59,085 bases of DNA from a bacterium (GCA_021815205.1 JAKAHD010000005.1:1-59085); one strand, 5' to 3'. Positions 3,084-59,085 are shown, counted from the stretch's first letter. Notes: generated from the letters alone by a model not told the origin. Numbers and translations: made by a program.

Positions 3084-5054
3084 TTATTTTTTTCTTGTTT
3101 CCACCGCTTCGCTCACAAACATCGCGGTGGTAAAAATCGCCGGATTGTATTTTTTCTCGGCTTTGCTCCGGTCAAGATTGGTAATAATCCCAGTTTTCTC
3201 GCCGGTTGCCGTTTCCTGCACATTGCCCTCTAAAATACTCTGATACATCCCAATGATTTGAATTGGCTTATTTCGTTGAATCCGCACGCCGGTTTCAGTG
3301 TCAATGCCAGTTTCTATCAATCTTTTCCATTCTGCCGCGCCCTGCGGATTATTAGAAACGATGACCACAGCGTCCGTTCCTTCCAAAATCCTCGCGTTCT
3401 CAGCAGTGAGGCGGGTGATTTTAACGATTTTACCCCGCTCGTCTTTTTTGATTTTACCGCCGCCGATGTCGCCAATAATAAAGTCAGTTTTTTCATCTTG
3501 GGCGGCAGCCATCAGTTCCTGTTTTGCTTCTTCAGCAAGGTCAAGCGACCATGACCGCTTCATTGAACGTCTTTTTTCTGCCGCTTCTTCAAGCTTCTTT
3601 TTTGCCTCATCTAATTTTTCTTGGGATAGTTTTCCTTGCGAGAAAAGCAATTCAGCTTCTTTGGCGGTGATCTCTGCATCCAAGTACCACTGGGGCGTTG
3701 GCGCGGCCTTGTCCAAATCAAGATGAGCCACCCGAACGCCAAGATTTTTTAACGCTTCCCGAAAAATCGTGGAATAAACCGACTTGCCGGAATTGGGATC
3801 GCCGCATATTACCACTGACCGCACCTTTGAAAAATCCGGCATTTCTTTTCCCGCAAATACTTCCACCAGCTCTGCGGCGATCTTTGCGGTTTCTCTATCA
3901 TTAACCGGTAATCTGATTGTCTTAGCGTTCTTTGCCCCATACATTCTGTATTGCTCAACAAATTCTGCTCCGAAATGATGAGTGATCATTTCTTCAACCG
4001 ACGACAAATCTTCTCGCGTCCAGTGTCTGATTACCGTTACCACATCAGCCGGTTCGCGACCCATTTTAATGTCGCCGAGTTCCCGCAACACGCCGATAGC
4101 ATAAGGCGTTTTTTCGACGCCCGCATTTTCTATCGCCATTTCCATTAACTTCAACACGCCGAGTTTACTCGTTAAATCTTGGGTATCAACAATGGCAATT
4201 TGACCAAAACCGCCGGCAGTTGGGATTTCTACCCTACTCATTCGTTCGGCCTCTTGTTTGAAATAATCCCAATCCTCGGCTTTTAGTCGTCTAACCGTTT
4301 CCTCAAGCCGCGCCTGTGTTCTCTCTTCCCACGCGCGGAGTTTTTCCTGATAGTCCAACTTTTCTTCATCAGTTGGATTTTTGGAGAGTTTTGGCCGTTC
4401 ATCATCTGGATCGGGGCGCACAGCCGCGTCAAGCCCCCTTGCCAAAAACATTTCTTCGTCTGTCACCGGCAAGACCGCAGAATCGCGATCGCAAATCGCT
4501 CCAATGCGAGCGATTTTCGTTTTTTCGTTACCGAGCTTGCACGCTTCAGCAATCGAAACTTTCTTAATTAAAACAGAATCGCGAGACGTGCTGAACTGGG
4601 TTGTGCTGTGATGGTCGAGGTAAAAAGTCGAGTGTTCTACTTCTGGTAATCCTCTTTTCTGGCGGCTTTCTCTTATTCTCTCATCAAGTTGTGCGATTGC
4701 TTTTTCGGAGTTTGGCAAATCCCTAAAATCAAGCGGAATGTCTGATATCACTACCCGATCATATCCCTCGACATCTAATTCAGGTATTGTTTTTGCATAA
4801 AATGCGCCGGGGTGTGTCGCGCCTTTGCCTTCGCGAATGACGGGCGAGCCGACATAGATAACCGCTTCCGCACCCCTTTTTTCGAGATATTGAGCCGAGG
4901 AGACCGCCATACTGACTCCATGAGCATCAGGCCCGCCAATCACCAAAACTTTTTGCCCCTCGAAATTTTCCTTGTCTTCAGGGCACTCTATATCTTCCCA
5001 TCTCTCAACCTCCTTCGCTGGCGGTGTAAATGGTTCAGGGTGTTTTTCGCTCAT
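3084..5054 (-). CDS. Fusion protein: DHH-like phosphoesterase N-domain plus P-loop NTPase C-domain (Clp1/Grc3-kinase-like; tentative)
   Basis: N-terminal half has VISDIP...FYLDHHS (DHH motif). C-terminal half has Walker A VVICGDPNSGKS followed by AHLDLDKAAPTPQW. An ATG at 5054 is preceded by AAGGAG. The ORF track extends to 5090. Confidence 0.55.
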   Translation of the reverse strand: MSEKHPEPFTPPAKEVERWEDIECPEDKENFEGQKVLVIGGPDAHGVSMAVSSAQYLEKRGAEAVIYVGSPVIREGKGATHPGAFYAKTIPELDVEGYDRVVISDIPLDFRDLPNSEKAIAQLDERIRESRQKRGLPEVEHSTFYLDHHSTTQFSTSRDSVLIKKVSIAEACKLGNEKTKIARIGAICDRDSAVLPVTDEEMFLARGLDAAVRPDPDDERPKLSKNPTDEEKLDYQEKLRAWEERTQARLEETVRRLKAEDWDYFKQEAERMSRVEIPTAGGFGQIAIVDTQDLTSKLGVLKLMEMAIENAGVEKTPYAIGVLRELGDIKMGREPADVVTVIRHWTREDLSSVEEMITHHFGAEFVEQYRMYGAKNAKTIRLPVNDRETAKIAAELVEVFAGKEMPDFSKVRSVVICGDPNSGKSVYSTIFREALKNLGVRVAHLDLDKAAPTPQWYLDAEITAKEAELLFSQGKLSQEKLDEAKKKLEEAAEKRRSMKRSWSLDLAEEAKQELMAAAQDEKTDFIIGDIGGGKIKKDERGKIVKITRLTAENARILEGTDAVVIVSNNPQGAAEWKRLIETGIDTETGVRIQRNKPIQIIGMYQSILEGNVQETATGEKTGIITNLDRSKAEKKYNPAIFTTAMFVSEAVETRKK

Positions 5055-8248: not shown

Positions 8249-8713
8249 CTAGTCCGCCGCTTTTACCTTCAGTTTCTTCATCTTGTGCCGGTTCATGCGC
8301 GGCATGCGTACGGTAAGAATGCCGTTCTTCAGGGTCGCCACGGACTCTTCGGGATCTACTTCGTGCGGAAGGATAATGGAGCGGGAAAAGGTGCCCCAAA
8401 AAAGTTCCTGGTAGAAGTAATCTTTTTCCTGAATCTGCTTCTTCCGTTCGCGCGTGCCGCGAATCGTCACGGATTCGGTTGTGATGTTCACCTCGAGATC
8501 GTTGTCATCGACGCCCGCGACGGTCGATTCTACAACAAGATAGTCCCCGTCCTCATACACATCGACCGTGAGCGTGCCTTCGCCCTCTTCCGGATTTGTT
8601 TCCGTAAGGTCCTTGTCGGTCACCTTAAGCGGTGTTGGTTCGCTCTTCACTTTTGCGAGCTCGACGAAGATATCTTTTCTTTCTTCGTGTTCCATATGTT
8701 TCAATTGTAGCAC
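8249..8713 (-). CDS. Hsp20/alpha-crystallin small heat-shock protein
   Basis: LTVDVYEDGDYLVVESTVAGV...FSRSIILPHEVDPEESVATLKNGILTVRMP is a typical ACD domain. The start could instead be the ATG at 8695. Confidence 0.85.
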   Translation of the reverse strand: MLQLKHMEHEERKDIFVELAKVKSEPTPLKVTDKDLTETNPEEGEGTLTVDVYEDGDYLVVESTVAGVDDNDLEVNITTESVTIRGTRERKKQIQEKDYFYQELFWGTFSRSIILPHEVDPEESVATLKNGILTVRMPRMNRHKMKKLKVKAAD

Positions 8714-40442: not shown

Positions 40443-40514
40443 GCGCCCTTAGCTCAGTGGTAGAGCGCGTCGTTGACATCGACGAGGCCGGAAGTCCGAT
40501 CCTTCCAGGGCGCA
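40443..40514 (+). tRNA. tRNA-Val (GAC)
   Basis: Acceptor GCGCCCT/AGGGCGC, D-arm GCTC-AGTGGTA-GAGC, anticodon loop TTGACAT. Confidence 0.85.
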
Positions 40515-42139
40515 CTAGAAATCTTGAAAATGCCTGGGCCTATAGTATAGCGGTAGAACGCCTCCATGGCATGGAGGAGGTCGGGGTTCGACTCCCCGTA
40601 GGTCCACCAACAGGAATTTTGCAAATTTTTTGAGCCAGACGGAAGGATTGCCTCGCGGCTTCGCCGCTCGGCAGGGGCGCGTCCCGCAAGGCGGGACGCG
40701 GCAAAATCCCACGGCTCGCCAAACAAAACGGAAACGGATTTGTCCAAAAGTAAGGGGTTCGTTCCAATCTTTTGGACAAATGCCTTGATTTCAGGAAAAC
40801 TGTCGCTCGCCGACAGTTTTTCGGCTTTATTCGCGTCTAAAATCCACGCCCGCAAGGGTTGGAGCCAATTCTTTCCCGTTCGTCCAAAATCCTCTAAATC
40901 GTTCGCAAGAGAAACTTTTTGCTTCAACAATTCCTCTTTTTTCAGCAGATAGTTTTCTTTGGGAATATCGCCGTCAATGTAGGCGGAAACAAGCTTGTCC
41001 AGTTTCTCTTGTGTCTCCGCTAATTTTGATTTTAGATTTTGGACGAACGATTGTGATGAGTGGACATTTTCTCTTTGCCATTCATCTACTTGCTTCAACA
41101 TTTTTTCTGTCCACTCATCGCAAAGAGCAACGCTTTGGAGCCGTGCCTTCAGTTGCGCGGCAAGGTCTTTTTCTTGGAGATATTTTTGCGAGCAAACACC
41201 TTTCTTTTTGGTGCAACGATAATAGCGATATATCCCGCCGCATTTGCCGCGCGAAAATTGCGCCGTGATCGCCGAGCCGCACTCGCCACAGTTCAAAAGT
41301 CCGGTAAATGGAAAATCATGGCGTTGTTTGCTCTTGCGGGGTTTGGCACGGCGCAATAAGACATTCTGCACGGCTTCAAAAAGCGTTGCGGAAAGAATTG
41401 GCTCAAAGCGTCCTTCGTGATATTCACCCTTATGCTTCACCAAACCTAAATATGCTTGATTAGTAAGCATTCGTGATATGGACGCTTTGGCAAGTGGCGT
41501 TCGGTGTCGTGTTTCCAAACCAAGTTCAGCCAAAAACTCCGCCATAGTTTCCAGTGTATGCGTCCCTTTGGCGTATTCCTCAAACGCGCGAACGATGACT
41601 TTTGAAAGTGTTGGGTGCGGTTCAATCGTGCGCGTTTTCGGATTGTTGACATAGCCAAAGGGCGCTTTGGTCAGCCATTCGCCACGGCGGAGTTTTTGGC
41701 GGATACCGCGATTGATATTTTCAACGAGGTTATCCGAGTAATATTTGGATTGACCGAACGCCACTTGCAACATAAACAACCCTTGCGGCGTGGGCTCAAA
41801 CCAAAATGTCGGAAAGCGCAAAGAAACAATCTTTTGAGTATCCACGAGATAAATGACTTTGCCGCCGTCCACCGAATTACGCGCCAACCTGTCGGGGTGC
41901 CACGCAAGTATACCTACACCGTCCATTTTCTCAATCTCGGAAATCATGGCGGCAAACATTTCTCGTCCGGGTTTCTTTGCGCTTTTCGCCTCGGTAAATT
42001 CTGCAAGAATTTCAAGATTTTCTCTGCGCGCGTATTCTCGCAATTCAAAAAGCTGTGCCTCGATGGACATTATTTGGTGGTCGTCATCTTCCGTTGATTT
42101 GCGAGCGTAGAGAAAATATTTTGGTTTGAGCATATTCAT
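40454..42139 (-). CDS. Large serine recombinase 1
   Basis: KYFLYARKSTEDD (catalytic Ser), HPDRLARN, a recombinase domain, zinc ribbon CGECGS...CTKKKGVC, and a coiled coil. The conserved part ends near 40740. The ORF then reads through IR-A and antisense tRNA-Ala and tRNA-Val before reaching a stop. Confidence 0.9.
   Translation of the reverse strand: MNMLKPKYFLYARKSTEDDDHQIMSIEAQLFELREYARRENLEILAEFTEAKSAKKPGREMFAAMISEIEKMDGVGILAWHPDRLARNSVDGGKVIYLVDTQKIVSLRFPTFWFEPTPQGLFMLQVAFGQSKYYSDNLVENINRGIRQKLRRGEWLTKAPFGYVNNPKTRTIEPHPTLSKVIVRAFEEYAKGTHTLETMAEFLAELGLETRHRTPLAKASISRMLTNQAYLGLVKHKGEYHEGRFEPILSATLFEAVQNVLLRRAKPRKSKQRHDFPFTGLLNCGECGSAITAQFSRGKCGGIYRYYRCTKKKGVCSQKYLQEKDLAAQLKARLQSVALCDEWTEKMLKQVDEWQRENVHSSQSFVQNLKSKLAETQEKLDKLVSAYIDGDIPKENYLLKKEELLKQKVSLANDLEDFGRTGKNWLQPLRAWILDANKAEKLSASDSFPEIKAFVQKIGTNPLLLDKSVSVLFGEPWDFAASRLAGRAPAERRSREAILPSGSKNLQNSCWWTYGESNPDLLHAMEAFYRYTIGPGIFKISSAPWKDRTSGLVDVNDALYH
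40536..40609 (+). tRNA. tRNA-Ala (GGC), with encoded CCA
   Basis: Acceptor GGGCCTA/TAGGTCC with G3:U70, anticodon loop ATGGCAT, T-arm CGGGG-TTCGACT-CCCCG. The last 6 nt (CCACCA) belong to IR-A. Confidence 0.9.
40604..40735. repeat. IR-A (132 bp)
   Basis: Reverse complement of 42162-42293 with 2 mismatches. Contains hairpin GCGCGTCCCGC-AA-GGCGGGACGCG. Confidence 0.95.
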
Positions 42140-42161
42140 ATTGTTTTAGACGCGAATAAAT

Positions 42162-42293
42162 GTTTCCGTTTCGTTTGGCGAGCCGTGGGATTTTGTCGCG
42201 TCCCGCCTTGCGGGACGCGCCCCTGCCGAGCGGCGAAGCCGCGAGGCAATCCTTCCGTCTGGCTCAAAAAATTTGCAAAATTCCTGTTGGTGG
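42162..42293. repeat. IR-A' (132 bp)
   Basis: Reverse complement of 40604-40735. Overlaps IR-B by GTGG. Confidence 0.95.
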
Positions 42294-42443
42294 GATATTC
42301 TGAATGTAGCGCGAACCCATTTTGAACGAAATTGCTGACGCAATTTCGCCAAGTCCCAGAAACCCGCTCGGGCGTGGCGGAAGGAGGGGGTTGGGGGGAG
42401 GAATTCCGCCGCGCCCTCGCTTTCGGAAATTTCAAAACGGCGC
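42290..42443. repeat. IR-B (154 bp)
   Basis: Exact reverse complement of 43813-43966. Contains the G-run GGAGGGGGTTGGGGGGAGG. Confidence 0.95.
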
Positions 42444-42455
42444 CGAATCAATTTT

Positions 42456-43799
42456 ATGGAACTCTCTGCTTTATTTTTTATTTTATACATAGCGATTGTG
42501 GTAGTTATCGGTATCGTTTCCTCTAGAAAAGAAACCGAGGACGATTTCATGATTGCCGAACGAAAGGTTCAGGGCGTTCAGGTGGCGGCCACCATGAGCG
42601 CCGGTTTTTTTGATGGTGCAACTTTGTCAATTTATCTTGCATATATTTATCTCTATGGTTTTTCGGCAATCTGGCTTTTTGTTGGTATTGCACTCGGATT
42701 TTTGCTGGTAAGGAAATATGCTCATAAAATCAAACAGAAAGCCGACGAACTGAAAGTGTATTCCATGCCGGAATACTTTTTCAGAATTTTGGGAAAGAAA
42801 AATGGCCTCATGTTTTCTTTCTTTTTGGTGCTCCAATTTTTTCTTTTGCTCATCGTCAATTTGATAATTAGCGGCAAAGTTTTGGCGGCCATTTTTCCTG
42901 TCCCATATTTTCTAGCGGTCATAATTGGCGGAGTAATCGTTTTGACATACTTGTTGCTTGCTGGATTCAAAGCAGTAGTGCGAACAGATTTTTTCCAAAT
43001 GATCATCATGTTCATCATGACTTTTTCAGTCGCAATATTTCTTTTTGGCAAGACCAACATCCCCGTTTCAGAATTTAATCTTGGTACTTTGGGAATTGGC
43101 AATATCATCGGCTTTCTCATTCTCGCGGGCTTTGGAATTATGGTTGCGCCAGATTTGTGGCAGAGAATTTTTGCAACAAAAGACGAGCAGAATTTGAAGC
43201 GCGGACTTACATATTCAGCTTTGATATTGCCAATTCTTGGAATAGTCATTAGCGTTGTTGGTCTTGCCACAAAAACAGCATTTCCAAATATTGTGCCGGA
43301 AGACGCTTTGGTAACTGGCTTCTCACATCTGCTTCCTTTCGGACTAAAAGAGTTTGGCATGGTTTTACTGTATGCGGTTGCGCTTTCGTCTTCCGACACG
43401 GTTACTTTCGTTGTTTCATCCATTTTTACCCGCGACCTCAAAAACTATTCTCAAAGGTATAGCGAGGAATCAATGAAAAAACTTACTCGTTTTTTCATGA
43501 TTGTTTTTATCGCACTTGCTTCGCTCATCGCCATTTTTTACCAAAACATTTTGGCACTTGGTTTTTCGCTCGCAAGTTTGAACCTCGCTCTATTCCCAAT
43601 AGTTTTTGGGTCGCTCTATTGGAAGCTGAAACAACGAGCAGTTTTTTGGAGTTTGGTTTTTGGATTTGTGAGCATTCTCGTTTTGTTTGTCACTAACCAA
43701 CTCAATCCTCAAAACGCGGTTGTCTCACTTCCGGTCGTCTTGTTCTCGTTGCTCATATTCCAAAAACTATTTAGAATGGAGCCTGCGGCTACTGCTTGA
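42456..43799 (+). CDS. Sodium:solute symporter (SSS) family transporter
   Basis: About 12 TM segments. The N-terminus, ...GIVSSRKETEDDFMIAERKV...AATMSAGFF, is typical of SSF proteins. The start lies 12 nt after IR-B, and the stop 13 nt before IR-B'. Confidence 0.75.
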   Translation: MELSALFFILYIAIVVVIGIVSSRKETEDDFMIAERKVQGVQVAATMSAGFFDGATLSIYLAYIYLYGFSAIWLFVGIALGFLLVRKYAHKIKQKADELKVYSMPEYFFRILGKKNGLMFSFFLVLQFFLLLIVNLIISGKVLAAIFPVPYFLAVIIGGVIVLTYLLLAGFKAVVRTDFFQMIIMFIMTFSVAIFLFGKTNIPVSEFNLGTLGIGNIIGFLILAGFGIMVAPDLWQRIFATKDEQNLKRGLTYSALILPILGIVISVVGLATKTAFPNIVPEDALVTGFSHLLPFGLKEFGMVLLYAVALSSSDTVTFVVSSIFTRDLKNYSQRYSEESMKKLTRFFMIVFIALASLIAIFYQNILALGFSLASLNLALFPIVFGSLYWKLKQRAVFWSLVFGFVSILVLFVTNQLNPQNAVVSLPVVLFSLLIFQKLFRMEPAATA

Positions 43800-43812
43800 T
43801 TTTCAAGGAACT

Positions 43813-43966
43813 GCGCCGTTTTGAAATTTCCGAAAGCGAGGGCGCGGCGGAATTCCTCCCCCCAACCCCCTCCTTCCGCCACGCCCGAGCGGGTTTCTGG
43901 GACTTGGCGAAATTGCGTCAGCAATTTCGTTCAAAATGGGTTCGCGCTACATTCAGAATATCCCAC
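43813..43966. repeat. IR-B' (154 bp)
   Basis: Exact reverse complement of 42290-42443. Confidence 0.95.
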
Positions 43967-43967
43967 A

Positions 43968-43998
43968 GGGGAAGGATGGCGGAGAGGTCTAACGCACC
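43968..43998 (+). pseudogene. 5' fragment of a class II (Leu/Ser-type) tRNA
   Basis: GGGGAAGGATGGCGGAGAGGTCTAACGCACC has acceptor-strand plus D-arm features. It breaks off before the anticodon loop. Confidence 0.45.
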
Positions 43999-44013
43999 TT
44001 TTTAATATAGAGC

Positions 44014-44103
44014 GGTGGGGTGGCCGAGTGGTTTAAGGCGGTAGTCTTGAAAACTGCTGTGCCCGAAAGGGCACCGTGAGTTCGAATCTCACCCCCACCG
44101 CCA
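44014..44103 (+). tRNA. tRNA-Ser (TGA), with encoded CCA
   Basis: Acceptor GGTGGGG/CCCCACC, anticodon loop CTTGAAA, variable arm TGTGCCCGAAAGGGCACC, T-arm GTGAG-TTCGAAT-CTCAC. The last 8 nt belong to IR-C. Confidence 0.9.
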
Positions 44104-45597
44104 AAATTGAAAATCGGAATTGGAAGCCGAGATGGGGTCGCGCCGCAGGCGCGACACAAACGCATTCCCGCCAAAAATTCCCGAATCCAAAAGGTTTTTC
44201 CACGCTCCGCGTGGCTCAAAAAGTACGGTTCGATCCTTAATTTGAAAGTTCGAACCGACTTTTTTGAACAAATGAAGTTTTTCTTCATTTGTTCCCTCGT
44301 TTGCCAATTCCATATTGTATTTCAAAAACTTTTCGGTAAGTTCGAACCGATTATTCGCTTTTTGCTCAAAAGCCGATAATTTCTCTTTGAGAAGCTGTTT
44401 TGAGGCAACCAGCGCACTCTTGGCGTCACGATATTCTTCTAGCGAAAGTGCGCTCTCCAAATACGCATTCATCAGCTTCTCAATTTTGGAATCTAAAAGA
44501 GAAATTTCGGCTTTCGTAGAGTCTGCAAAAAGCGTAGAGGATTGGGCTTCACTCAATATATCTTTTCTATTTTCCGCTAACATCCAAGAAGCCCAATCGT
44601 CTGGCAAAGAAACTTTTTTGATTTCCTTTTGTATTTCGGAAGTGATGATTTCTTCGCGAGTATATTTTTGAGTACAAGGATTTTTCCGTTTGGTACATCG
44701 CAAATAGTTATGACCTTTTTGCGTTTCGGTGGTGATAAAGCAACCGCACTCGCCACAACGGAAAAATCCGCGATACAAAAATGGTTTCAAACCTCGCGAC
44801 TTCGGCTTAGATTTTCTCATCATCACTTCCTGAACGGAATCAAAAAGTTTCTTTGAAATAATCGGTTCGTGCTTGCCCTCAAAAATCTCTCCGTTATACC
44901 GCATTAGACCCGTGTAAATAGGATTTTTGAGAAGTTTTTGATAATTCGACACCGCAAGTTCCTTTCCGCTTTTTCGCTTCAATCCAAGCGCGTTAAATTT
45001 GTCGCGGAGTTCTCGCAAAGTGAAGTTTCCAGTGGAATATGCCTCAAATGTCTTTTTGATAAGAGGCGCGATATTCTCATCAGGCACGATTTGTTTGTTT
45101 TTGTTCACATAGCCAAGGGGCGACATTTGAGGCCATATTCCGTCCTTCACTTTGTTTCTATGTCCGCGCTTGATATTTTCACTTAGGTTGTCCACATAAT
45201 ACTTGGATTGCGAAAAAGCGATTGAAAGCATGAACTTGCCTTGCGGTGTCGGATCAAACCAAAAAGTTGGGAATTTCATTTCTGAAATTACGCCAGTATC
45301 AACGAGGTAGATGATTTTTCCGCCATCTACCGAGTTGCGAGCAAGTCTATCGGGATGCCACGCCAAAATACCAGTGGCTTCGCCTTTTTCCATTCTTTCC
45401 AACATCTCACCAAACACGGGGCGACCTGGTATTTTGGCGGTCTGCTTCTCGACAAAGACATCTATCACTTCCAGTTGTTCTTTCAACGCGAGTTCCTTTA
45501 ACTCCGAAAGTTGGTCAGAAATACTGCGGACTTGCCGGTCTTTGTCGTCCGTAGATTTGCGAGTATAGATGAAAAACTTTTTGGTTTGATTATTCAT
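44089..45597 (-). CDS. Large serine recombinase 2
   Basis: KFFIYTRKSTDD, HPDRLARN, zinc ribbon CGECGC...CTKRKNPC, and a coiled coil. Homologous to recombinase 1. The ATG at 45597 is preferred over the ORF-track start at 45714, which lies in IR-C'. The last ~40 codons lie in IR-C. Confidence 0.9.
   Translation of the reverse strand: MNNQTKKFFIYTRKSTDDKDRQVRSISDQLSELKELALKEQLEVIDVFVEKQTAKIPGRPVFGEMLERMEKGEATGILAWHPDRLARNSVDGGKIIYLVDTGVISEMKFPTFWFDPTPQGKFMLSIAFSQSKYYVDNLSENIKRGHRNKVKDGIWPQMSPLGYVNKNKQIVPDENIAPLIKKTFEAYSTGNFTLRELRDKFNALGLKRKSGKELAVSNYQKLLKNPIYTGLMRYNGEIFEGKHEPIISKKLFDSVQEVMMRKSKPKSRGLKPFLYRGFFRCGECGCFITTETQKGHNYLRCTKRKNPCTQKYTREEIITSEIQKEIKKVSLPDDWASWMLAENRKDILSEAQSSTLFADSTKAEISLLDSKIEKLMNAYLESALSLEEYRDAKSALVASKQLLKEKLSAFEQKANNRFELTEKFLKYNMELANEGTNEEKLHLFKKVGSNFQIKDRTVLFEPRGAWKNLLDSGIFGGNAFVSRLRRDPISASNSDFQFWRWG
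44096..44217. repeat. IR-C (122 bp)
   Basis: Reverse complement of 45617-45738 with 1 mismatch. Contains hairpin GGTCGCGCC-GCA-GGCGCGAC. Confidence 0.95.
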
Positions 45598-45616
45598 AAT
45601 TGTATTGGCAAACGAG

Positions 45617-45738
45617 GAGCCACGCGGAGCGTGGAAAAACCTTTTGGATGCGGGAATTTTTGGCGGGAATGCGTTTGTGTCGCGCCTGCGGCGCGACCCC
45701 ATCTCGGCTTCCAATTCCGATTTTCAATTTTGGCGGTG
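45617..45738. repeat. IR-C' (122 bp)
   Basis: Reverse complement of 44096-44217. Overlaps IR-D by CGGTG. Confidence 0.95.
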
Positions 45739-45946
45739 TGTATTGGACGAAGTTCGAATGTATTTCGGACAAAATCCGCAGGATTTTGACGAATGACACT
45801 TGCGCCTCGGCCGCGCTCGACAAGCTCGCGCGGGGCAAAACCCAAAAATTTCCTATCATTTTTATTAGCGGCTCCCCCCACACCCCCCGCCGCAAAGCGG
45901 AACATTTGAAAGGAAGGAAATTTTTGGGTTTGCCGCCGCCACTTCA
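45734..45946. repeat. IR-D (213 bp)
   Basis: Exact reverse complement of 52348-52560. Confidence 0.95.
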
Positions 45947-45976
45947 ATTTCAACATACTTGTAATATATCACATTA

Positions 45977-46006
45977 TTGTTATACAACACAATAATTTGC
46001 TACAAT
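45977..46006 (+). promoter_or_regulatory. Putative promoter of the element-2 cargo operon
   Basis: TTGTTA, 18 nt, TGcTACAAT (extended -10). Confidence 0.45.
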
Positions 46007-46018
46007 ACATCTGTGAAT

Positions 46019-46225
46019 ATGAAAACCCCAACATCAAGACTTGGCAAAAACATCAAACGCATACGCGAGCAAAAGGAAATGAGCCAAGGCGACATTTGCC
46101 GCGCGGTCGGGCTTGATCGTGCCCAAATGAGCAATATTGAAGCGGGCAAAGGCAATCCCACGCTTGCCACGATCGAAAAAATCGCTCAAGCGTTGGGAGT
46201 AACAAGCGACGAGCTTTTGAAATAG
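46019..46225 (+). CDS. XRE-family helix-turn-helix regulator
   Basis: LGKNIKRIREQKEMSQGDICRAVGLDRAQMSNIEAGKGNPTLATIEKIAQALGV is a canonical HTH_3. Confidence 0.8.
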   Translation: MKTPTSRLGKNIKRIREQKEMSQGDICRAVGLDRAQMSNIEAGKGNPTLATIEKIAQALGVTSDELLK

Positions 46226-46227
46226 TT

Positions 46228-46950
46228 ATGGCAAAACAACAAACAAACAATCAATTTAGAAAAATCAGAGTTTATATCCGTTTTTTCGGATTGCCATTAC
46301 TGCTTGTGATAGTGGCAATTGTTGGTTGGTTTTTTACACCAAATGACCTTAGTAATTTCAAAAGCACATTGGTTGGTACTCTGCTCAGTATCGGAATAAC
46401 ACTTGCCGCCGCCGAGGGTTTCAGAAAACTGGCTGAATACAAACGAGTAAAGAAAACTTTTGGTTTGTTAAAGCTGGTTACCATTCCCTATCTTAAGAAT
46501 CAGTCGGAGAATCTTGAAGCTACAATGAAACAATACAACGACATCTGTTCTATTGAGCAGTCGGTCCTGTTTTTCGCGCAGTGCTCCCAGTTAGACAAAA
46601 TTGCGACAAACTTTGATAAAAGCTGGCTACAACTTATGTATTCGCAAGATTTCCTAGACGCAGTGAATAGCGATGACCATTTTAACAAAATAGCGAATGC
46701 TATTTTCGAAGTTTTGCTTTTTATCAAACAGCTATCTTCACAATCAGCAAATGCTCAAATCAACCTCCATAATGATTTTTCAAAACTAACGAAGGAGCAA
46801 CAAGAGGAATTTATCAATCGTGCCAAACAAATGCGGGACGGATTGAAAGAAAATATTGAGAAGTTGTCAAAATACACGGGAAAATTGGACGAGGAGATAT
46901 TAAAGTCTCTGAATGCGACAGGGACAAATTATTCGGAGTTTGATAGATAA
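46228..46950 (+). CDS. Hypothetical 2-TM membrane protein
   Basis: Two N-terminal TM helices, then a ~160-aa soluble domain with no recognisable motif. Confidence 0.55.
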   Translation: MAKQQTNNQFRKIRVYIRFFGLPLLLVIVAIVGWFFTPNDLSNFKSTLVGTLLSIGITLAAAEGFRKLAEYKRVKKTFGLLKLVTIPYLKNQSENLEATMKQYNDICSIEQSVLFFAQCSQLDKIATNFDKSWLQLMYSQDFLDAVNSDDHFNKIANAIFEVLLFIKQLSSQSANAQINLHNDFSKLTKEQQEEFINRAKQMRDGLKENIEKLSKYTGKLDEEILKSLNATGTNYSEFDR

Positions 46951-46954
46951 TTCT

Positions 46955-48658
46955 ATGACCGAAAAAGATTTACAAAAGAAAGTAGTGGAGCTGGAAGCTC
47001 AAATCAGGAAACTCAAGAAAAGCAATCTCGGGCTGGTTTTTGAGGACAAAACGGAAGACGTTGTTGAGCAATCAAAAGTCAAAGTTCCTGTTTTGAAAGA
47101 AGTCGTCAAAAACCGCCTTGATTTGAGCGAGGAGTATCCGAATAACTTGATGATAGAGGGAGACAATTACCTTGCACTTTCGGTTCTTAACTATACACAC
47201 AAAAAGAGCATTGACCTCATCTACATTGATCCGCCGTACAACACTGGCGCAAAAAATTGGAAGTACAACAATGACTATGTAGATAAGGACGATGAATACC
47301 GACACAGCAAGTGGCTTTCGTTTATGCGTCATCGCCTTAATCTTGCGAAAAACTTGTTGAGAGATGATGGTGTGTTAATTTGCGCGATTGACGACAATGA
47401 ACAGGCACACTTGGGCGTTCTTTTTGAACAAATGTTTCCCGCGTATGATCAATATCCGATTGTAATAATTCACAATCCAGGTGGTACACAGGGAAATAAC
47501 TTTCACTTTACACACGAATACGCAATATTTTTGGTACCAAAGAATAAGACACTGATTGGTCTGCAAGATAGAACTGATAACCCGGATGTGAGACCGTTGC
47601 GCGATGTTTCAACAGGAAATCACTTGCGGGAAGATGCAAAAAACTGTTTTTATCCAATTTTTGTTAAAAACGGAAAGATAATTGGTTTCGGTGATGTAAG
47701 TCCAGACTCTTTCCATCCGAAATCAGCAAATGTGGTACGCAGAGATGGAGTGACTGAGATTTATCCGATAGACCCAAGTGGTAATGAAAGAAAGTGGGTG
47801 TTTGCTCGACAGACGGTGGAGAGTATAAAAGACGAATTGGCGGTGATAGAAAACAGAAGTAGAAAGATCATTGACATTGTTAGAACAAAAACAATGTTTA
47901 ACTATAAGACTGTTTGGACAGACGGCAAGTATAACGCCAATATTTTTGGAACAAAACTTTTGCGCGAGATTTTGCCAAATTGCGATTTTGATTTTCCAAA
48001 GTCACTTTATACAGTTTATGACTGCCTCTTTGCGGTTGTCGGTCAGCGTCCACACGCAAATGTTTTGGACTTTTTCGCTGGGTCTGGCACAACCGGACAC
48101 GCCGTTTTGGAAATGAACAAAATTGACGGCGGCACTCGCAAGTTTATTCTTTGCACAAACAACGAAAACAACAATGGCGGAAACGGCGGGATTGCCGAAT
48201 CGGTTTGCTATCCGCGAATAAAGGCAGTCATTAACGGATACAAGAACAAAAAGAGCAAAAAAGTCGCTGGTATTCCGAGCAATCTTTTTTACTACCAAAC
48301 GGATCTCGTGGACATTGAGCAAATCCACAAGGTACCGGACGAGGCGAAAATACGCATTACTTACCAAGCGGGAGAAATGATCGCCGTCCGAGAGGACGCA
48401 CTCAACGAAGTTGAAAAAAATGACTGGTGGCAGATTTTTGAGGGGAAGGACAAACTCGTGGCGATTTACTTCAAGGAAGACAAAGCAAAACTAGCGGAGC
48501 TCATTGCCAAATTGGAAAAGAAAAATCTGCCGACGGCTTTGTATATTTTCAGTTGGGGCAAGAACGAATACAAAGGCGAATATTCCAGTGTGAATATCAG
48601 AGTCGAGGATATTCCGGAGCCGATTATCGAAGTTTATAAAGAACTCAACCGAGTATAA
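46955..48658 (+). CDS. Type III-like (beta-class) N6/N4 DNA methyltransferase (Mod)
   Basis: DLIYIDPPYNTG (motif IV) precedes LDFFAGSGTTGHAV (motif I). The ATG lies 4 nt after the upstream stop. Confidence 0.85.
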   Translation: MTEKDLQKKVVELEAQIRKLKKSNLGLVFEDKTEDVVEQSKVKVPVLKEVVKNRLDLSEEYPNNLMIEGDNYLALSVLNYTHKKSIDLIYIDPPYNTGAKNWKYNNDYVDKDDEYRHSKWLSFMRHRLNLAKNLLRDDGVLICAIDDNEQAHLGVLFEQMFPAYDQYPIVIIHNPGGTQGNNFHFTHEYAIFLVPKNKTLIGLQDRTDNPDVRPLRDVSTGNHLREDAKNCFYPIFVKNGKIIGFGDVSPDSFHPKSANVVRRDGVTEIYPIDPSGNERKWVFARQTVESIKDELAVIENRSRKIIDIVRTKTMFNYKTVWTDGKYNANIFGTKLLREILPNCDFDFPKSLYTVYDCLFAVVGQRPHANVLDFFAGSGTTGHAVLEMNKIDGGTRKFILCTNNENNNGGNGGIAESVCYPRIKAVINGYKNKKSKKVAGIPSNLFYYQTDLVDIEQIHKVPDEAKIRITYQAGEMIAVREDALNEVEKNDWWQIFEGKDKLVAIYFKEDKAKLAELIAKLEKKNLPTALYIFSWGKNEYKGEYSSVNIRVEDIPEPIIEVYKELNRV

Positions 48659-48662
48659 AACT

Positions 48663-50951
48663 ATGTTTGCGCTAAAACCATTTCAAGAAACAGTAATATC
48701 ACAGCTCAAAGATCAGTTTTTGAGTTTGTGGAAATTGCCAAATCAAAATATCCCGCTCGTTTTCAAATCACCCACCGGAAGCGGTAAGACAATAATGTTG
48801 GCGCAATTTTTGCGCGACATCGTGAGCGACCCGCGTTTTGCGGGCAATGATGTGGCATTTGTATGGTTCTCATTCAGTGAGGATTCCTACGAACAGAGCA
48901 AGAAAAAACTTTTTGACTACTACGGCGGAGCAAGCGAGCTTGATTTGATTGACCTCAATGATCTGTCGCGCGAGAAGCTACGCCAAAACGATGTCTTTTT
49001 CATAAACTGGCAGAAAATCAAAGGCAAAAGTAAAGACAGCCGAAAATTGCGTCGCGAAAATGAGCAGGGTTTGACTTTTGATAATTTCATCAACGAAACG
49101 CACGAAGCGGGACGCAAAATTGTCGTAATTATTGACGAGGAACATATCGGAAGCGACACCGACCTTGCGCTGGAAGTGGTGGAAGGGCTTATCAAGCCGA
49201 AAATCACGCTCCGCGTGTCGGCAACGCCGAAATACATCCCTACCCGCGCCGATACCGCCGGATATGTTGAGGTCAAGCGAAATGAAGTTGTTGAGGCGGG
49301 GTTGATCAAAGAGAAAATCGTTTTCCAAACAGAGGAAGATTTAGAGCAGAAAGCCGTCAAGAAACTTGACCAAGACGAAATGCTTTTGGAGCTTGCCTAT
49401 AATAAACGGCTAGAGTTGATTGAGCTGTACAAAAAGCTCGGCGTTGAAGTCAATCCGCTTGTTTTGATTCAACTCCCGAACGACGATCAAGCGACAAAGG
49501 AAACTGGTGATACGAACAAGCAAACGATTGTGCTTGAGTACCTAAAACGCAAAGGTGTGAAAAGCGACGAGATCGCCGTTTGGCTCTCCAAAGAAAAGGA
49601 AAATCTTGAGGACTTGGAAAAGAGCAACTCGCCGGTTTCATTCCTCTTGTTCAAGCAAGCCGCTGCAACCGGCTGGGATTGTCCGCGCGCGGGTGTTTTG
49701 GTAATGTTCCGCGAAATTAAGAATCCAACTTTTGCGATACAAACAGTCGGGCGCATTTTGCGTATGCCGTTCGGATCGCATTTTGCTCATCCAGAACTTA
49801 ATCTTGGCTATCTTTACACCAACTACAAACGCAACGAGGTTTTGGCGGAGTACGCCAAGTCCAAAACCGAAAATCGTCCCGCAATCAATGGCAGTTATCG
49901 CAAAAAGAATGTTGAGCCACTAAAGCTGGAATCCGTCTTTATGATGCGCGCGGACTATAACGACTTGGGCGATTCTTTCCAAATGACATTCAAGCAAGTA
50001 GCGGACAAAAAACTGGACACCAAGAAACTCAATCTAAAACCGAAAGTGACAAACGGCTTGATTGTCGGCGTGGAAATTGACGACTACGACAATTTCACCA
50101 AAGAGCTGTTTGAGGAGGGTGGAAGTTATGACGAAGAAATGTCCCGCCACGACCTTGAGCGGCTGTATAACTTACTGTGCTTTAAAATTGTCGCCAAGCA
50201 AACCGACGAAAACCGCAAATTCGCGCCGGAGCGTTCTTGGGGCAAACTCAAGACCGCGCTGAACATTTATCTTATGGAGAAACTCAAGATTTCCCGCGCT
50301 GACGCTTACAAAATTATTGTGAATGATTTGGTAAGCGAGGCAGGCGCGCTTGCGCCAGTTATTGGCGATGCGCTTTTGGCTTATCGTCCACTCCGCGAGC
50401 AGGAAGTAAATAAGAAAGCGGCACGCGCAAAGCGCGTAGAGCATATTGAAATACCACGCGAGGCGTTATTTTTCACCGACCAATATGAGGAGCTGAATGT
50501 TAAGAAGGCCGCAATGGAGCCGTTTTGGTTTGAAAAAATCCCTGCTGGATTGTTTGGAGGTACGAACAATGAAAGAAAATTTATTGACTTCCTCGAATCT
50601 CCAAAAAATAAAAGTATCATTTGGTGGCATAAAAACGGCGACACCGGAAGCGAACATTTTTCAATTTCCTTTTACAATCCCGACGAGAACAAGGAAAAAC
50701 TTTTTTATCCCGACTGGATCGTAAAGACGAAAAACGGTGTTTTGATTGTTGATACAAAAGCCGGAATTACTGCCGAAAGCAACGACACGAAATACAAAGC
50801 GGAAGCTCTGCAGGCATGGCTCAAAGGCAGGAAAGGTTTTGACGGCGGCATTGCCGTTCAAGACGGACCAAACGGCTGGAAAATAAATCGCAATGCCAAA
50901 TACTCGCACGATTCATCGCTCAAAGGCTGGGATGTCCTTGATTTGAAATAG
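48663..50951 (+). CDS. Type III restriction enzyme Res-like helicase-nuclease
   Basis: FKSPTGSGKT, VVIIDEEH, RVSATP, and a C-terminal PD-(D/E)xK-like FYPDWIV...IVDTKAG. Confidence 0.8.
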   Translation: MFALKPFQETVISQLKDQFLSLWKLPNQNIPLVFKSPTGSGKTIMLAQFLRDIVSDPRFAGNDVAFVWFSFSEDSYEQSKKKLFDYYGGASELDLIDLNDLSREKLRQNDVFFINWQKIKGKSKDSRKLRRENEQGLTFDNFINETHEAGRKIVVIIDEEHIGSDTDLALEVVEGLIKPKITLRVSATPKYIPTRADTAGYVEVKRNEVVEAGLIKEKIVFQTEEDLEQKAVKKLDQDEMLLELAYNKRLELIELYKKLGVEVNPLVLIQLPNDDQATKETGDTNKQTIVLEYLKRKGVKSDEIAVWLSKEKENLEDLEKSNSPVSFLLFKQAAATGWDCPRAGVLVMFREIKNPTFAIQTVGRILRMPFGSHFAHPELNLGYLYTNYKRNEVLAEYAKSKTENRPAINGSYRKKNVEPLKLESVFMMRADYNDLGDSFQMTFKQVADKKLDTKKLNLKPKVTNGLIVGVEIDDYDNFTKELFEEGGSYDEEMSRHDLERLYNLLCFKIVAKQTDENRKFAPERSWGKLKTALNIYLMEKLKISRADAYKIIVNDLVSEAGALAPVIGDALLAYRPLREQEVNKKAARAKRVEHIEIPREALFFTDQYEELNVKKAAMEPFWFEKIPAGLFGGTNNERKFIDFLESPKNKSIIWWHKNGDTGSEHFSISFYNPDENKEKLFYPDWIVKTKNGVLIVDTKAGITAESNDTKYKAEALQAWLKGRKGFDGGIAVQDGPNGWKINRNAKYSHDSSLKGWDVLDLK

Positions 50952-50953
50952 TT

Positions 50954-52054
50954 ATGAATATTTCTTGGATAAAAAATTTGATAGAGAAAATAAATATTTC
51001 ATTTTCTTCAAAGAAGATAAATTCTCCTTCAGTCAAGATAAAAAATGAGACCGAAAACAGGATTGATAAAGCAATTATTTATCAAGGATTATCATATTCT
51101 GATGCTAAAGATTTAGTTGAATCAGTAATTGACCAGAAGTTAATGGTTTTTAAAAATGAGGCGAAACTTGAATATGAAAATCGAGCCAATGAGTTTGGTA
51201 GCCTTTTAAAAGAAAAGCTATCAGGCCTCCCCGAAGAAGAAATTGCAAAACTAAAAGACCCCGATACTCAACTTGCTTTATTAGAAGCTGCGACAATAAG
51301 TGGTAGAAAGCAAAATAAGGATTTGCGAGGAGTTTTGGCCGATTTAGTAATTCACAGAATTAAAAATGACCAGACAGGAAAAGAGGAATTGAAAAATATA
51401 GTTTACAACGAGGCCATATCAACAATAGGGAAAATAACATCTGATCAGCTGAAAATTATTACCCTATGTTATCTGTTGAGATATGTTTCTTTTTTAAACA
51501 TAAATTCTTGGGAGGCGTTTCAGGACTATTTTTCGAAAAACATTTCACCATTTATTGATTTCAATAATTCTGATTCACAATTTCAACATATTGAATACGC
51601 TGGGTGTGGAAGTATAGGTATAGGTTCATGGAGTTTAGATAAAATCTATCAACTCGAATATGCTTTTTTGTTTCAAAATGACATAACAGAGCAGGAAATC
51701 ACAGAATTAGGGATTGATGATGAGTTAAAAAACAAGTTTATTGGAAAAAAAGAGAGTGGCGGTTTCATAATTCGATTGAGAAACAAACAAGCTCTTGAAA
51801 AGTATCTTGACGATCAAAATACGGAAACAGAAACAAAAAAGAAAATAGTAGATTTATATGAGCGTAAAATAAAATCTACTGGCGATGTAAGAAAGGAGGT
51901 TGAAGAAAAAATTGATATCGGAAAGAAAGTTTTTGAGGTATGGGAAAAGAATTTGAAGCACTTAAATTTGACTTCTGTGGGGATCGCTATCGGAGCTACA
52001 TATTTTGAGCAGATAACTGGAGAAAAGATTGATATAAATATCTGGATAAATTAA
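50954..52054 (+). CDS. Hypothetical 366-aa protein co-transcribed with mod/res
   Basis: Starts 2 nt after the res stop. AT-rich, with no recognisable motif. Confidence 0.55.
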   Translation: MNISWIKNLIEKINISFSSKKINSPSVKIKNETENRIDKAIIYQGLSYSDAKDLVESVIDQKLMVFKNEAKLEYENRANEFGSLLKEKLSGLPEEEIAKLKDPDTQLALLEAATISGRKQNKDLRGVLADLVIHRIKNDQTGKEELKNIVYNEAISTIGKITSDQLKIITLCYLLRYVSFLNINSWEAFQDYFSKNISPFIDFNNSDSQFQHIEYAGCGSIGIGSWSLDKIYQLEYAFLFQNDITEQEITELGIDDELKNKFIGKKESGGFIIRLRNKQALEKYLDDQNTETETKKKIVDLYERKIKSTGDVRKEVEEKIDIGKKVFEVWEKNLKHLNLTSVGIAIGATYFEQITGEKIDINIWIN

Positions 52055-52347
52055 GGGAGCTGCCCGCGTCAGCGGGTGGGCTTGTGCGCGCACTGGGCGG
52101 GTGGGGCAAGCACAAGAGCTACCACGAACACCGCCGAAGCTACGGAGCGAACACGAAGCAAGCACCGAGCAGGCATCGCGAGCGAAGCGAGCGGCCAGTG
52201 CGAGGTGCTTGCGAAGTATGAGCGGACTACCGAACTACCACCAAACGCGGGGATGGGAGCGCCTCGGGCCGACGCAAACGACGGAGAAAAGGCGGGCGTA
52301 AAACTGGCAAAAATGCTAAACTATACCTATAAGCCTTTTTGGAGGAG
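52055..52347. other. GC-rich (~60% by eye) non-coding block inside AT-rich element 2
   Basis: Several stems are present: CCCGC/GCGGG, GCTTGTGC/GCACAAG-GC, and GCAAGCACC...GGTGCTTGC (9 bp). The GAAGC/GAGCG motif recurs. No convincing ORF. Confidence 0.5.
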
Positions 52348-52560
52348 TGAAGTGGCGGCGGCAAACCCAAAAATTTCCTTCCTTTCAAATGTTCCGCTTT
52401 GCGGCGGGGGGTGTGGGGGGAGCCGCTAATAAAAATGATAGGAAATTTTTGGGTTTTGCCCCGCGCGAGCTTGTCGAGCGCGGCCGAGGCGCAAGTGTCA
52501 TTCGTCAAAATCCTGCGGATTTTGTCCGAAATACATTCGAACTTCGTCCAATACACACCG
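52348..52560. repeat. IR-D' (213 bp)
   Basis: Exact reverse complement of 45734-45946. Confidence 0.95.
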
Positions 52561-52616
52561 CTCTATATTAAAACTTGTCATGCCGAAGGCATCTTCCCTT
52601 CCGTAAAATAAAATCT

Positions 52617-58958: not shown

Positions 58959-59085
58959 CTGCAAAAGATGAGATACATCGCTGACACCTCAGACGTGTCA
59001 GATGAGATGCTCAAAACGATTTTCAAATAGGGGAGGGGCGCGGTATGGTGTGGGTATGCAATACACCCACATCCTGCCAGGCGCC
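58959..59085. repeat. Terminal inverted repeat, right copy (127 bp, perfect)
   Basis: Exact reverse complement of nt 1-127. Confidence 0.95.

Follow-up and report, generated by a model that had tools for sequence, protein, structure and literature searches.

Why would an integrated element keep, within the chromosome, a second and intact copy of its own attP in inverted orientation? The question is raised by a 59,085-nt bacterial contig (GCA_021815205.1 JAKAHD010000005.1; hereafter the window, meaning the whole stretch analysed, to which all coordinates refer). Two elements lie there in tandem, each at the 3' end of a tRNA gene and each with its own recombinase gene, rec1 and rec2. We give a probability of roughly 0.55 to the following account as a whole: these are tRNA-targeting large serine recombinase (LSR) elements whose free form would be a circle with two attP copies, the internal attP would be a silent copy of the circle junction, and the polarity of the integrated form would be kept by selection.

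tRNA genes in the window were called with ARAGORN, inverted repeats (IRs) were located with a repeat finder, and junctions were read directly and then recomputed. Element 1 has the following parts.

40536-40609, plus strand: tRNA-Ala(GGC), target of element 1 (ARAGORN)
40604-40607: attL1 core CCAC, within tRNA-Ala(GGC)
40604-40605: predicted crossover dinucleotide of element 1, CC (tRNA positions 71-72)
40604-40735: IR-A, P' arm of attL1; pairs with IR-A' (132 nt, 98%)
40454-42139, minus strand: rec1, predicted LSR (Pfam domains)
42162-42293: IR-A', inverted copy of the P' arm, 22 nt upstream of the rec1 ATG
42262-42330, minus strand: intact internal attP of element 1, inverted; core GTGG at 42290-42293
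42290-42443: IR-B, P arm beside the 5' end of the cargo; pairs with IR-B' (154 nt, 100%)
42456-43799, plus strand: cargo, sodium:solute symporter (SSF family)
43813-43966: IR-B', P arm of attR1; core CCAC at 43963-43966
43967-44013, plus strand: 47-nt spacer, comprising the original tRNA-Ala downstream flank (b' of element 1) and the tRNA-Ser leader

Element 2 follows directly.

44014-44103, plus strand: tRNA-Ser(UGA), target of element 2 (ARAGORN)
44096-44101: attL2 core CACCGC, with the discriminator G at 44100
44096-44217: IR-C, P' arm of attL2; pairs with IR-C' (122 nt, 99%)
44089-45597, minus strand: rec2, predicted LSR; ATG at 45597
45617-45738: IR-C', inverted P' arm upstream of rec2
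45733-45738: internal attP2 core GCGGTG
45733-45946: IR-D, P arm beside the 5' end of the cargo; pairs with IR-D' (214 nt, 100%)
46228-52054, plus strand: element 2 cargo of four open reading frames
plus strand, within the cargo: 240-aa open reading frame with no assigned family
46913-48658, plus strand: Mod of a type III restriction-modification system
48663-50951, plus strand: Res of the same type of system
50954-52054, plus strand: LPO_1073/Vpar_1526 family protein
52348-52561: IR-D', P arm of attR2; core CACCGC at 52556-52561
52561-52573, plus strand: original tRNA-Ser trailer CTCTATATTAAAA

The integrated order is thus tRNA, P' arm, recombinase gene antisense to the tRNA, inverted P' arm with core and P arm, divergent cargo, inverted P arm, and native flank. 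The four inverted-repeat pairs are far longer than expected by chance in 14 kb, and they, both tRNA genes and the junctions lie where a reading of the sequence alone (the sequence-only reading) had placed them. In element 1 the junctions tRNA to IR-A, reverse complement of IR-A' to IR-B, and IR-B' to flank read ggtCCACcaacagg, atatcCCACcaacagg and atatcCCACagggga, with CCAC common to all three. The corresponding junctions of element 2 (tRNA to IR-C, reverse complement of IR-C' to IR-D, IR-D' to flank) read ccccCACCGCcaaaat, atacaCACCGCcaaaat and atacaCACCGCtctata and share CACCGC. The core of element 2 lies at the site given before but is 6 bp long rather than 5, so that IR-D starts at 45733 and not at 45734; the totals of 282 and 330 bp for the two attP repeats are unchanged. 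In the internal attP of element 1, the P half-site with a GGTTCG motif is on the IR-B side and the P' half-site is on the IR-A' side. IR-A contains the P' half-site CAACAGGAATTT and GC-rich hairpins, and its inner end consists of the final conserved codons of rec1. IR-D holds 25-nt hairpin arms of its own.

The target site of element 2 keeps a trace of its earlier state. The leader TTTTAATATAGAG (44000-44012) is exactly complementary to the trailer CTCTATATTAAAA (52561-52573) over 13 nt, and C44013 adds one further pair with G52560, so the complement of 44000-44013 with 52560-52573 that had been claimed is exact. This is what an ancestral extended acceptor stem would look like if the insertion of element 2 had split it. 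In the reconstructed empty site, the acceptor stem of tRNA-Ser is lengthened by 14 perfect base pairs, which is unusually long for a precursor stem; the neighbouring tRNA-Val and tRNA-Ala have no such extension. In the 47-nt spacer, the sequence GGATGGCGGAGAGGTCTAACGCACC (43975-43998) loosely resembles the 5' part of a Ser/Leu-type tRNA (D-arm region) and may be a tRNA remnant.

Both recombinases contain the Resolvase, Recombinase and Zn_ribbon_recom domains (PF00239, PF07508, PF13408) above the curated cut-offs, and their nearest relatives of solved structure (PDB) are the integrases of SPbeta and A118. By this domain set and these relatives, rec1 and rec2 are classified as LSRs. They are homologous, as had been proposed, with 39% identity to each other. 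The catalytic R-x-S-T motif is YARKST at residues 11-16 of rec1, and R13, K14, S15 and T16 were nearly invariant in an alignment of 14 sequences. The conserved part of the protein ends at about residue 480, just within the inner edge of repeat A or C (near 40700 in rec1), and beyond this point the rec1 frame stays open through IR-A into the tRNA in antisense. The top NCBIfam matches were CcrB, XisF and CcrA, all far under their curated cut-offs. More than 6000 homologues were found at E<=1e-20, and those with a named source were almost all from Parcubacteria/Patescibacteria. Among the IMG/VR viral contigs there was one true homologue only, and a phage origin of the elements was therefore rejected.

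Are the junctions attachment sites of these enzymes? We fetched 80 loci from species-representative genomes in a scripted analysis and aligned their att sequences on the discriminator base of the tRNA. In about 45 of 54 loci, the tRNA junction and the internal site become identical exactly 2 nt before the discriminator (-2). In a logo built from 48 sites, AAGTT-type motifs are symmetric about -1.5, which places the predicted crossover dinucleotide at tRNA positions 71-72. GGTTCG stands at -27 to -22 in the P arm, and the tRNA carries the same motif at -21 to -16, where the T-loop sequence GGTTCGA spans -21 to -15, which is an outward shift of 6 bp. In work on the A118 integrase, a motif reportedly lies further from the centre in attP than in attB, by about half a helical turn, which is said to be a hallmark of LSR half-sites. 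These features identify the junctions as genuine att sites of LSRs. No motif is conserved in the right half of attB (the b' flank), where terminator hairpins are frequent; this fits native DNA downstream of a tRNA gene and a recombinase that reads mainly the tRNA side.

The full relation of attL, inverted attP and attR was seen in 28 loci, whose arm sequences are unrelated to one another; the geometry read from the window alone thus recurs with different sequences. The cores are 4-9 bp in nearly all of these loci, and one reads 13 bp. The core is repeated directly at both ends of the element, and the target tRNA or tmRNA gene stays intact. The 4-6 bp beside each repeat belong to the inverted repeat and are not a direct duplication around each segment. 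Separate insertion of a recombinase unit and a cargo unit was rejected, since conservative recombination would have left the central core in direct orientation and it is inverted.

The layout is not peculiar to the window. An inverted repeat brackets the recombinase gene in all 62 loci with enough flank (median length 131 nt, identity 99.2%, spacing 1433 nt), which bears out the suggestion that the layout itself is conserved. In 51 of the 80 loci the downstream arm overlaps the antisense 3' end of a tRNA gene, and in about 12 further loci there is tRNA- or tmRNA-like sequence at that arm. The targets include tRNAs for Ala, Leu, Lys, Pro, Gly, Glu, Ser, Arg, Gln and Ile. Where more than 3 kb lie beyond the upstream arm, a second repeat abuts that arm in 27 of 41 loci; it has a median length of 219 nt (up to 435 nt) and encloses 1.1-6.5 kb of cargo. 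In loci with no visible partner arm, the P-arm motif still follows the inverted P' arm and core, so the internal site exists there too, although the far arm cannot be seen. The arms measure 90-430 bp; they are about 99% identical within an element and differ between elements, and they evidently evolve in concert. As judged from these loci, the layout is family-wide: it recurs in every testable relative, across dozens of independent genomes of the ultra-small candidate phyla radiation (CPR) bacteria.

The family, as sampled, belongs mainly to CPR/Patescibacteria and has some members in Bacteroidota. Two of the latter come from a Chitinophagaceae isolate (bacterium PMP191F; L076) and from a 1.1-Mb contig of a metagenome-assembled genome (MAG; L078). 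In both, the recombinase gene is bracketed by the repeat in the usual way and the 3' arm adjoins a tRNA, with 600-730 nt of additional, apparently non-coding sequence between the upstream arm and the gene. The element in L076 adjoins dnaA. Among the Patescibacteria, ARAGORN called two tRNAs with the anticodon tta ("tRNA-Stop", which would read UAA; L030:1832-1905 and L081:9543-9617), and at one of these an element is integrated. The arms of many loci hold GC-rich hairpins, often with GNRA- or UUCG-like loops (e.g., 40660-40700, 42370-42420 and 45830-45939 in the window). These hairpins were not scored as intrinsic terminators and matched no Rfam family; the RNA family scan returned tRNAs only. 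Scans for sigma-70 promoters and terminators gave no signal above shuffled background, with host promoters being uncharacterised.

The polarity of the elements is nearly constant. In practically every informative locus, the tRNA lies toward the 3' end of the recombinase gene, and none of the 80 loci had a tRNA called at the 5' side only. The cargo is divergent from the recombinase gene in all 19 loci with unidirectional cargo, and the usual arrangement is thus a tRNA gene converging with the recombinase gene, followed by cargo reading away from it. Exceptions are few: the recombinase gene is flipped in L081 and in L017 (where the contig end cuts the repeat and no repeat pair is visible), and the cargo is flipped in L082. 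Since orientation is almost invariant, the recombinase and cargo segments do not appear to isomerise freely. At L061:9780-11604, two tRNA-Leu genes (caa and gag) in inverted orientation enclose a recombinase unit that has both of its arms but no adjoining cargo arm. This fits the product expected if an internal attP had recombined with a second tRNA gene, by chromosomal inversion or deletion. An archaeal plasmid integrase has been described that drives inversions between tRNA genes, which is one of two analogies that we found in the literature. These cases indicate that inversion and secondary reactions occur while one polarity dominates.

Elements also accumulate and exchange parts. In L028, L082 and L084 the P arm of a neighbour is joined directly to the P' arm of the resident element. 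L050:3000-14400 contains three recombinase units of the same polarity at one tRNA-Ser, with cargo segments between them, and an exact 191-bp direct repeat (4698-4888 and 8273-8463) with a decayed 3' fragment of tRNA-Ser. At the VIT1 gene downstream of element 2, contigs of relatives either break at the repeat or show the P arm of another element. The sequences P0005, P0010 and P0011, in which the recombinase reading frame runs into a B-type arm, were considered as circles and rejected, being tandem arrays or a flipped isomer; L033, with attP on both sides of the recombinase gene, was likewise rejected as a decayed tandem structure.

Element 1 and L081 share about 90% identity in the B arm, although their cargos differ. 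In L085, a MAG contig with 98.7% identity to the window, the match covers the D' arm and the adjoining 213 nt on its inner side, after which the sequences diverge (L085:1-216 against window 51900-52135). We therefore regard the arms as a backbone and the cargo as exchangeable. Cargo thus differs between close strains at the same site. Across loci the cargo is diverse, including the symporter, type III restriction-modification and many others. In L010 (5925-7310) and L021 (5802-7181) it includes a fusion of a LexA-like DNA-binding domain, an S24 peptidase and an N6/N4 DNA methyltransferase, which is an unusual architecture. Recombinases at least 90% identical, with the same arm, were found at many different tRNAs, and thus the enzyme is promiscuous among core-matching tRNAs and the elements have moved recently.

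How might such an element move? The account we favour starts from what the loci show: the LSR takes tRNA or tmRNA genes as targets and inserts the element at their 3' ends, the crossover falls at tRNA positions 71-72, and the enzyme reads the GGTTCG T-loop motif in the tRNA and the same motif 6 bp further out in the P arm. If site-specific integration is conservative, as we assume, the free form would be a circle with two inverted attP copies. Integration would take place through the copy between the 3' ends of the recombinase gene and the cargo, or else insertions through the other copy would have been lost. By the rule that usually holds for LSRs, the internal attP in the chromosome should not react with the attL and attR of its own element, but it could still react with a free tRNA site, and this would explain the rare flipped isomers and L061. 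Since attL retains the tRNA half-site and the right half of attB appears to be free, attL might serve as attB for a non-cognate newcomer. Arrays would then grow from the tRNA side, which would explain the tandem arrangements.

The internal attP lies in the divergent control region of the recombinase gene and the cargo, and it is probably a standing, rarely recombining copy of the circle junction that acts as a binding site, control region or insulator. This is the weakest step of the account and a best guess. A known analogue might be Tn4451, in which the circle junction forms the recombinase promoter. The polarity would be selected so that transcription of the tRNA and of the cargo never reads into the recombinase gene in the sense direction; a silent recombinase would be favoured because a chromosomal attP together with a tRNA-promiscuous recombinase is hazardous. 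We also considered a promoter across the internal core as the cause of the fixed polarity. This idea is weakened by the conserved motif TTGTTTCGTATCTAAAA in the unique 25 nt beside the recombinase ATG, which would move with the segment.

Several observations weigh against this account. The reconstructed empty sites are GGTCCAC joined to AGGGGAAGG for element 1 and CCCCACCG joined to CTCTATATT for element 2, and exact 24-mer and 23-mer scans of metagenome contigs for both found no match, so a search proposed with the sequence-only reading came back empty. No free circle was found among the contigs examined. The two attP copies are identical in sequence over 280-330 bp, and the DNA gives no reason why one of them is used; that selection is the reason is what we infer. 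About 130 bp separate the recombinase half-sites from the conserved motif just upstream of the recombinase ATG, and therefore simple steric autorepression of a putative promoter there is doubtful. The P arm has a TATAAT-like box, without a well-spaced -35 box. A purely regulatory role also leaves the identity of the arms over hundreds of base pairs unexplained, and element 1 holds no candidate for a recombination directionality factor (RDF).

A more novel reading makes the internal attP an essential part of an undescribed serine-recombinase transfer cycle, either as a DNA-encoded substitute for the directionality factor or as a folding partner in single-stranded DNA. We regard this as possible but unlikely. 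If true, CPR bacteria would have in these "two-attP" elements their main cargo shuttle, and the elements would be a natural set of LSRs aimed at generic tRNA ends, with a specificity that is largely a 2-bp match.

The folding version is the better of the two, and we consider it distinctly unlikely. During transfer as single-stranded DNA (natural transformation or conjugation), A would pair with A' and B with B' to form two long hairpins, which would restore a double-stranded attP and juxtapose the host flanks, and so would aid priming of the second strand or insertion; the arms would stay identical through mismatch correction in the stems. In 28 loci the joined ends, together with the core, match the reverse complement of the internal site exactly, as a seamless three-way fold would need. 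The arms are also far longer than LSR sites at about 99% identity, and the fold would form whichever way the loops are oriented. Precedents for a folded single-stranded attP are CTX phage and integron attC sites, which speak for this explanation. However, serine recombinases cut double-stranded DNA in concert, and a folded single strand should by this reasoning yield hairpin-capped chromosome ends rather than the product observed. The fixed polarity is left unexplained, and the sequence data give no evidence of a single-stranded stage.

In the directionality version, to which we give only an outside chance, recombinase dimers on the internal attP would contact the dimers on attL and attR and lift their self-inhibition, so that excision would need no directionality protein. 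Element 1 consists of a recombinase and a symporter without an RDF gene, the near-identical recombinases at many tRNAs indicate mobility, and the internal site is kept as a full attP in all loci examined. On the other side, we know of no precedent for such a site, and TnpX and CcrAB are LSRs that excise with neither an RDF nor an internal site.

The layout had also been likened to that of the yeast 2-micron plasmid, and the recombinase might often invert the segments to give isomers, perhaps with copy-number amplification of a free circle. The reconstructed circle does have two long inverted repeats between two unique segments, and the three flipped isomers show that inversion can happen. The likeness holds for the layout and fails for free isomerisation, given the polarity counts above, and for replication: neither element 1, the smallest element with a recombinase and a symporter alone, nor the sampled cargos have replication or partition genes. 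LSRs do not normally recombine attP with attP, and the single true homologue among viral contigs also speaks against this explanation, which we consider improbable.

Still less probable is a phase-variation switch, in which the repeats would be inversion sites that toggle the recombinase gene or the cargo, as in Hin/Gin segments or shufflons. Inverted sites do bracket both segments, and some homologues carry the source name "DNA invertase Pin-like". However, the same arm of 90-430 bp stands at both ends of a segment, so that inversion would leave the local gene context unchanged; the orientation is fixed across genomes, and the enzyme is an LSR of about 480 aa and not a small invertase.

An assembly artefact, made by a chimeric walk through integrated and excised forms or by collapsed repeat copies, is hardly credible: many short-read contigs end at these repeats, as they would at real ones, and the window itself ends in a 127-nt inverted overlap, but the junction of the 5' end of the recombinase gene with the inner A' arm could not be produced by a graph walk over a simple element, and the layout with unrelated arms recurs in all 62 testable loci, which draw on numerous studies and on various assemblers (SPAdes, MEGAHIT, scaffold-type and contig_-type assemblies), including single contigs of 0.6-1.1 Mb, which answers the doubt about chimeric assembly raised at the outset. 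The contig_-named contigs of 0.6-1.1 Mb are probably from long reads. As to the ends of the window, positions 1-127 are the exact reverse complement of 58959-59085, and the likely cause is an assembly overlap of k=127 where an inverted repeat bounds the whole contig; the sister contig L085 continues from the end of the window into the reverse complement of its start.

The account of a tRNA-targeting element with a silent junction copy would matter in several ways. CPR/Patescibacteria make up a large share of bacterial diversity, gene exchange among them is little understood, and this family seems to be a major vehicle there for accessory genes, including transporters, restriction-modification and other defence systems, and metabolic enzymes. 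A chromosomal attP together with a recombinase that accepts many tRNAs is a built-in source of chromosomal inversions and module shuffling. The obligate internal attP runs against the textbook rule that attP is consumed by integration, and it also poses a concrete, testable question on how directionality and expression of LSRs are controlled in minimal elements without an RDF gene, and the Chitinophagaceae isolate (L076), a cultured host with a member of the family, makes experiments feasible. For genome engineering, the family offers many natural pairs of LSR and att site, a universal tRNA feature as target, and half-site rules that can be read from the alignment.

Known systems share parts of this organisation. 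Invertases of the Hin/Gin/Cin/Pin type are about 190 aa with a C-terminal helix-turn-helix, act on 26-bp sites and change expression by inversion, none of which is matched here. Insertion sequences and transposons with terminal inverted repeats, which have a transposase bound to those repeats and a direct target duplication, are not matched either, the enzyme here being a site-specific recombinase. In DIRS1 retrotransposons an internal sequence is complementary to the joined ends, and CTX phage has two inverted att regions that pair in single-stranded DNA. They depend on reverse transcription or on the single-strand action of tyrosine recombinases, and neither is present in the window elements.

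The only "inverted attP" that we found in the literature is in MiMIC and recombinase-mediated cassette exchange landing pads, in which two inverted attP sites surround a cassette. Those are man-made and meet a donor with two inverted attB sites, whereas the natural elements meet a single attB. The yeast 2-micron plasmid (FLP/FRT, 599-bp inverted repeats) has the same layout as the reconstructed circle, with two site-centred repeats and two unique segments, one of which carries the recombinase gene. However, the plasmid uses a tyrosine recombinase, encodes autonomous replication and partition and occurs as equimolar isomers, whereas the elements in the window have a serine recombinase, no replication genes and a fixed polarity, and are integrated in the chromosome.

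Tn4451 (TnpX), Tn5397 (TndX) and SCCmec (CcrAB) are likewise small cargo elements that are moved by an LSR through a circle without an RDF. They have no internal inverted copy of the junction, no long repeats around the recombinase gene and no targeting of tRNA ends. tRNA islands and tycheposons also sit at the 3' ends of tRNA or tmRNA genes, leave the tRNA intact, carry small cargo and form tandem arrays, but most of them use a tyrosine integrase and duplicate a 3' segment of the tRNA, whereas here the enzyme is a serine recombinase and the core is 4-9 bp. The tycheposon paper reports an LSR in a minority of its elements. No inverted internal att copy has been described for these islands, and in the full-text literature we found no description of any LSR element that keeps an inverted internal attP, which suggests that this organisation is new.

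The closest comparison is with the LSR systems of A118, SPbeta, Bxb1 and phiC31 and with the integrases of related prophages and integrative and conjugative elements. They share with the window elements the three-domain enzyme, the short core, quasi-symmetric attP half-sites, the motif offset between attP and attB, and the formation of attL and attR on integration. Their arms are about 25 bp, whereas the arms here are 90-430 bp. Each of them targets one gene, whereas the target here is the generic T-loop and acceptor end of tRNA, with no sequence requirement in the right half of attB. Finally, known LSR systems have a single attP that is destroyed on integration, whereas the elements described here always keep a second, complete and inverted attP.

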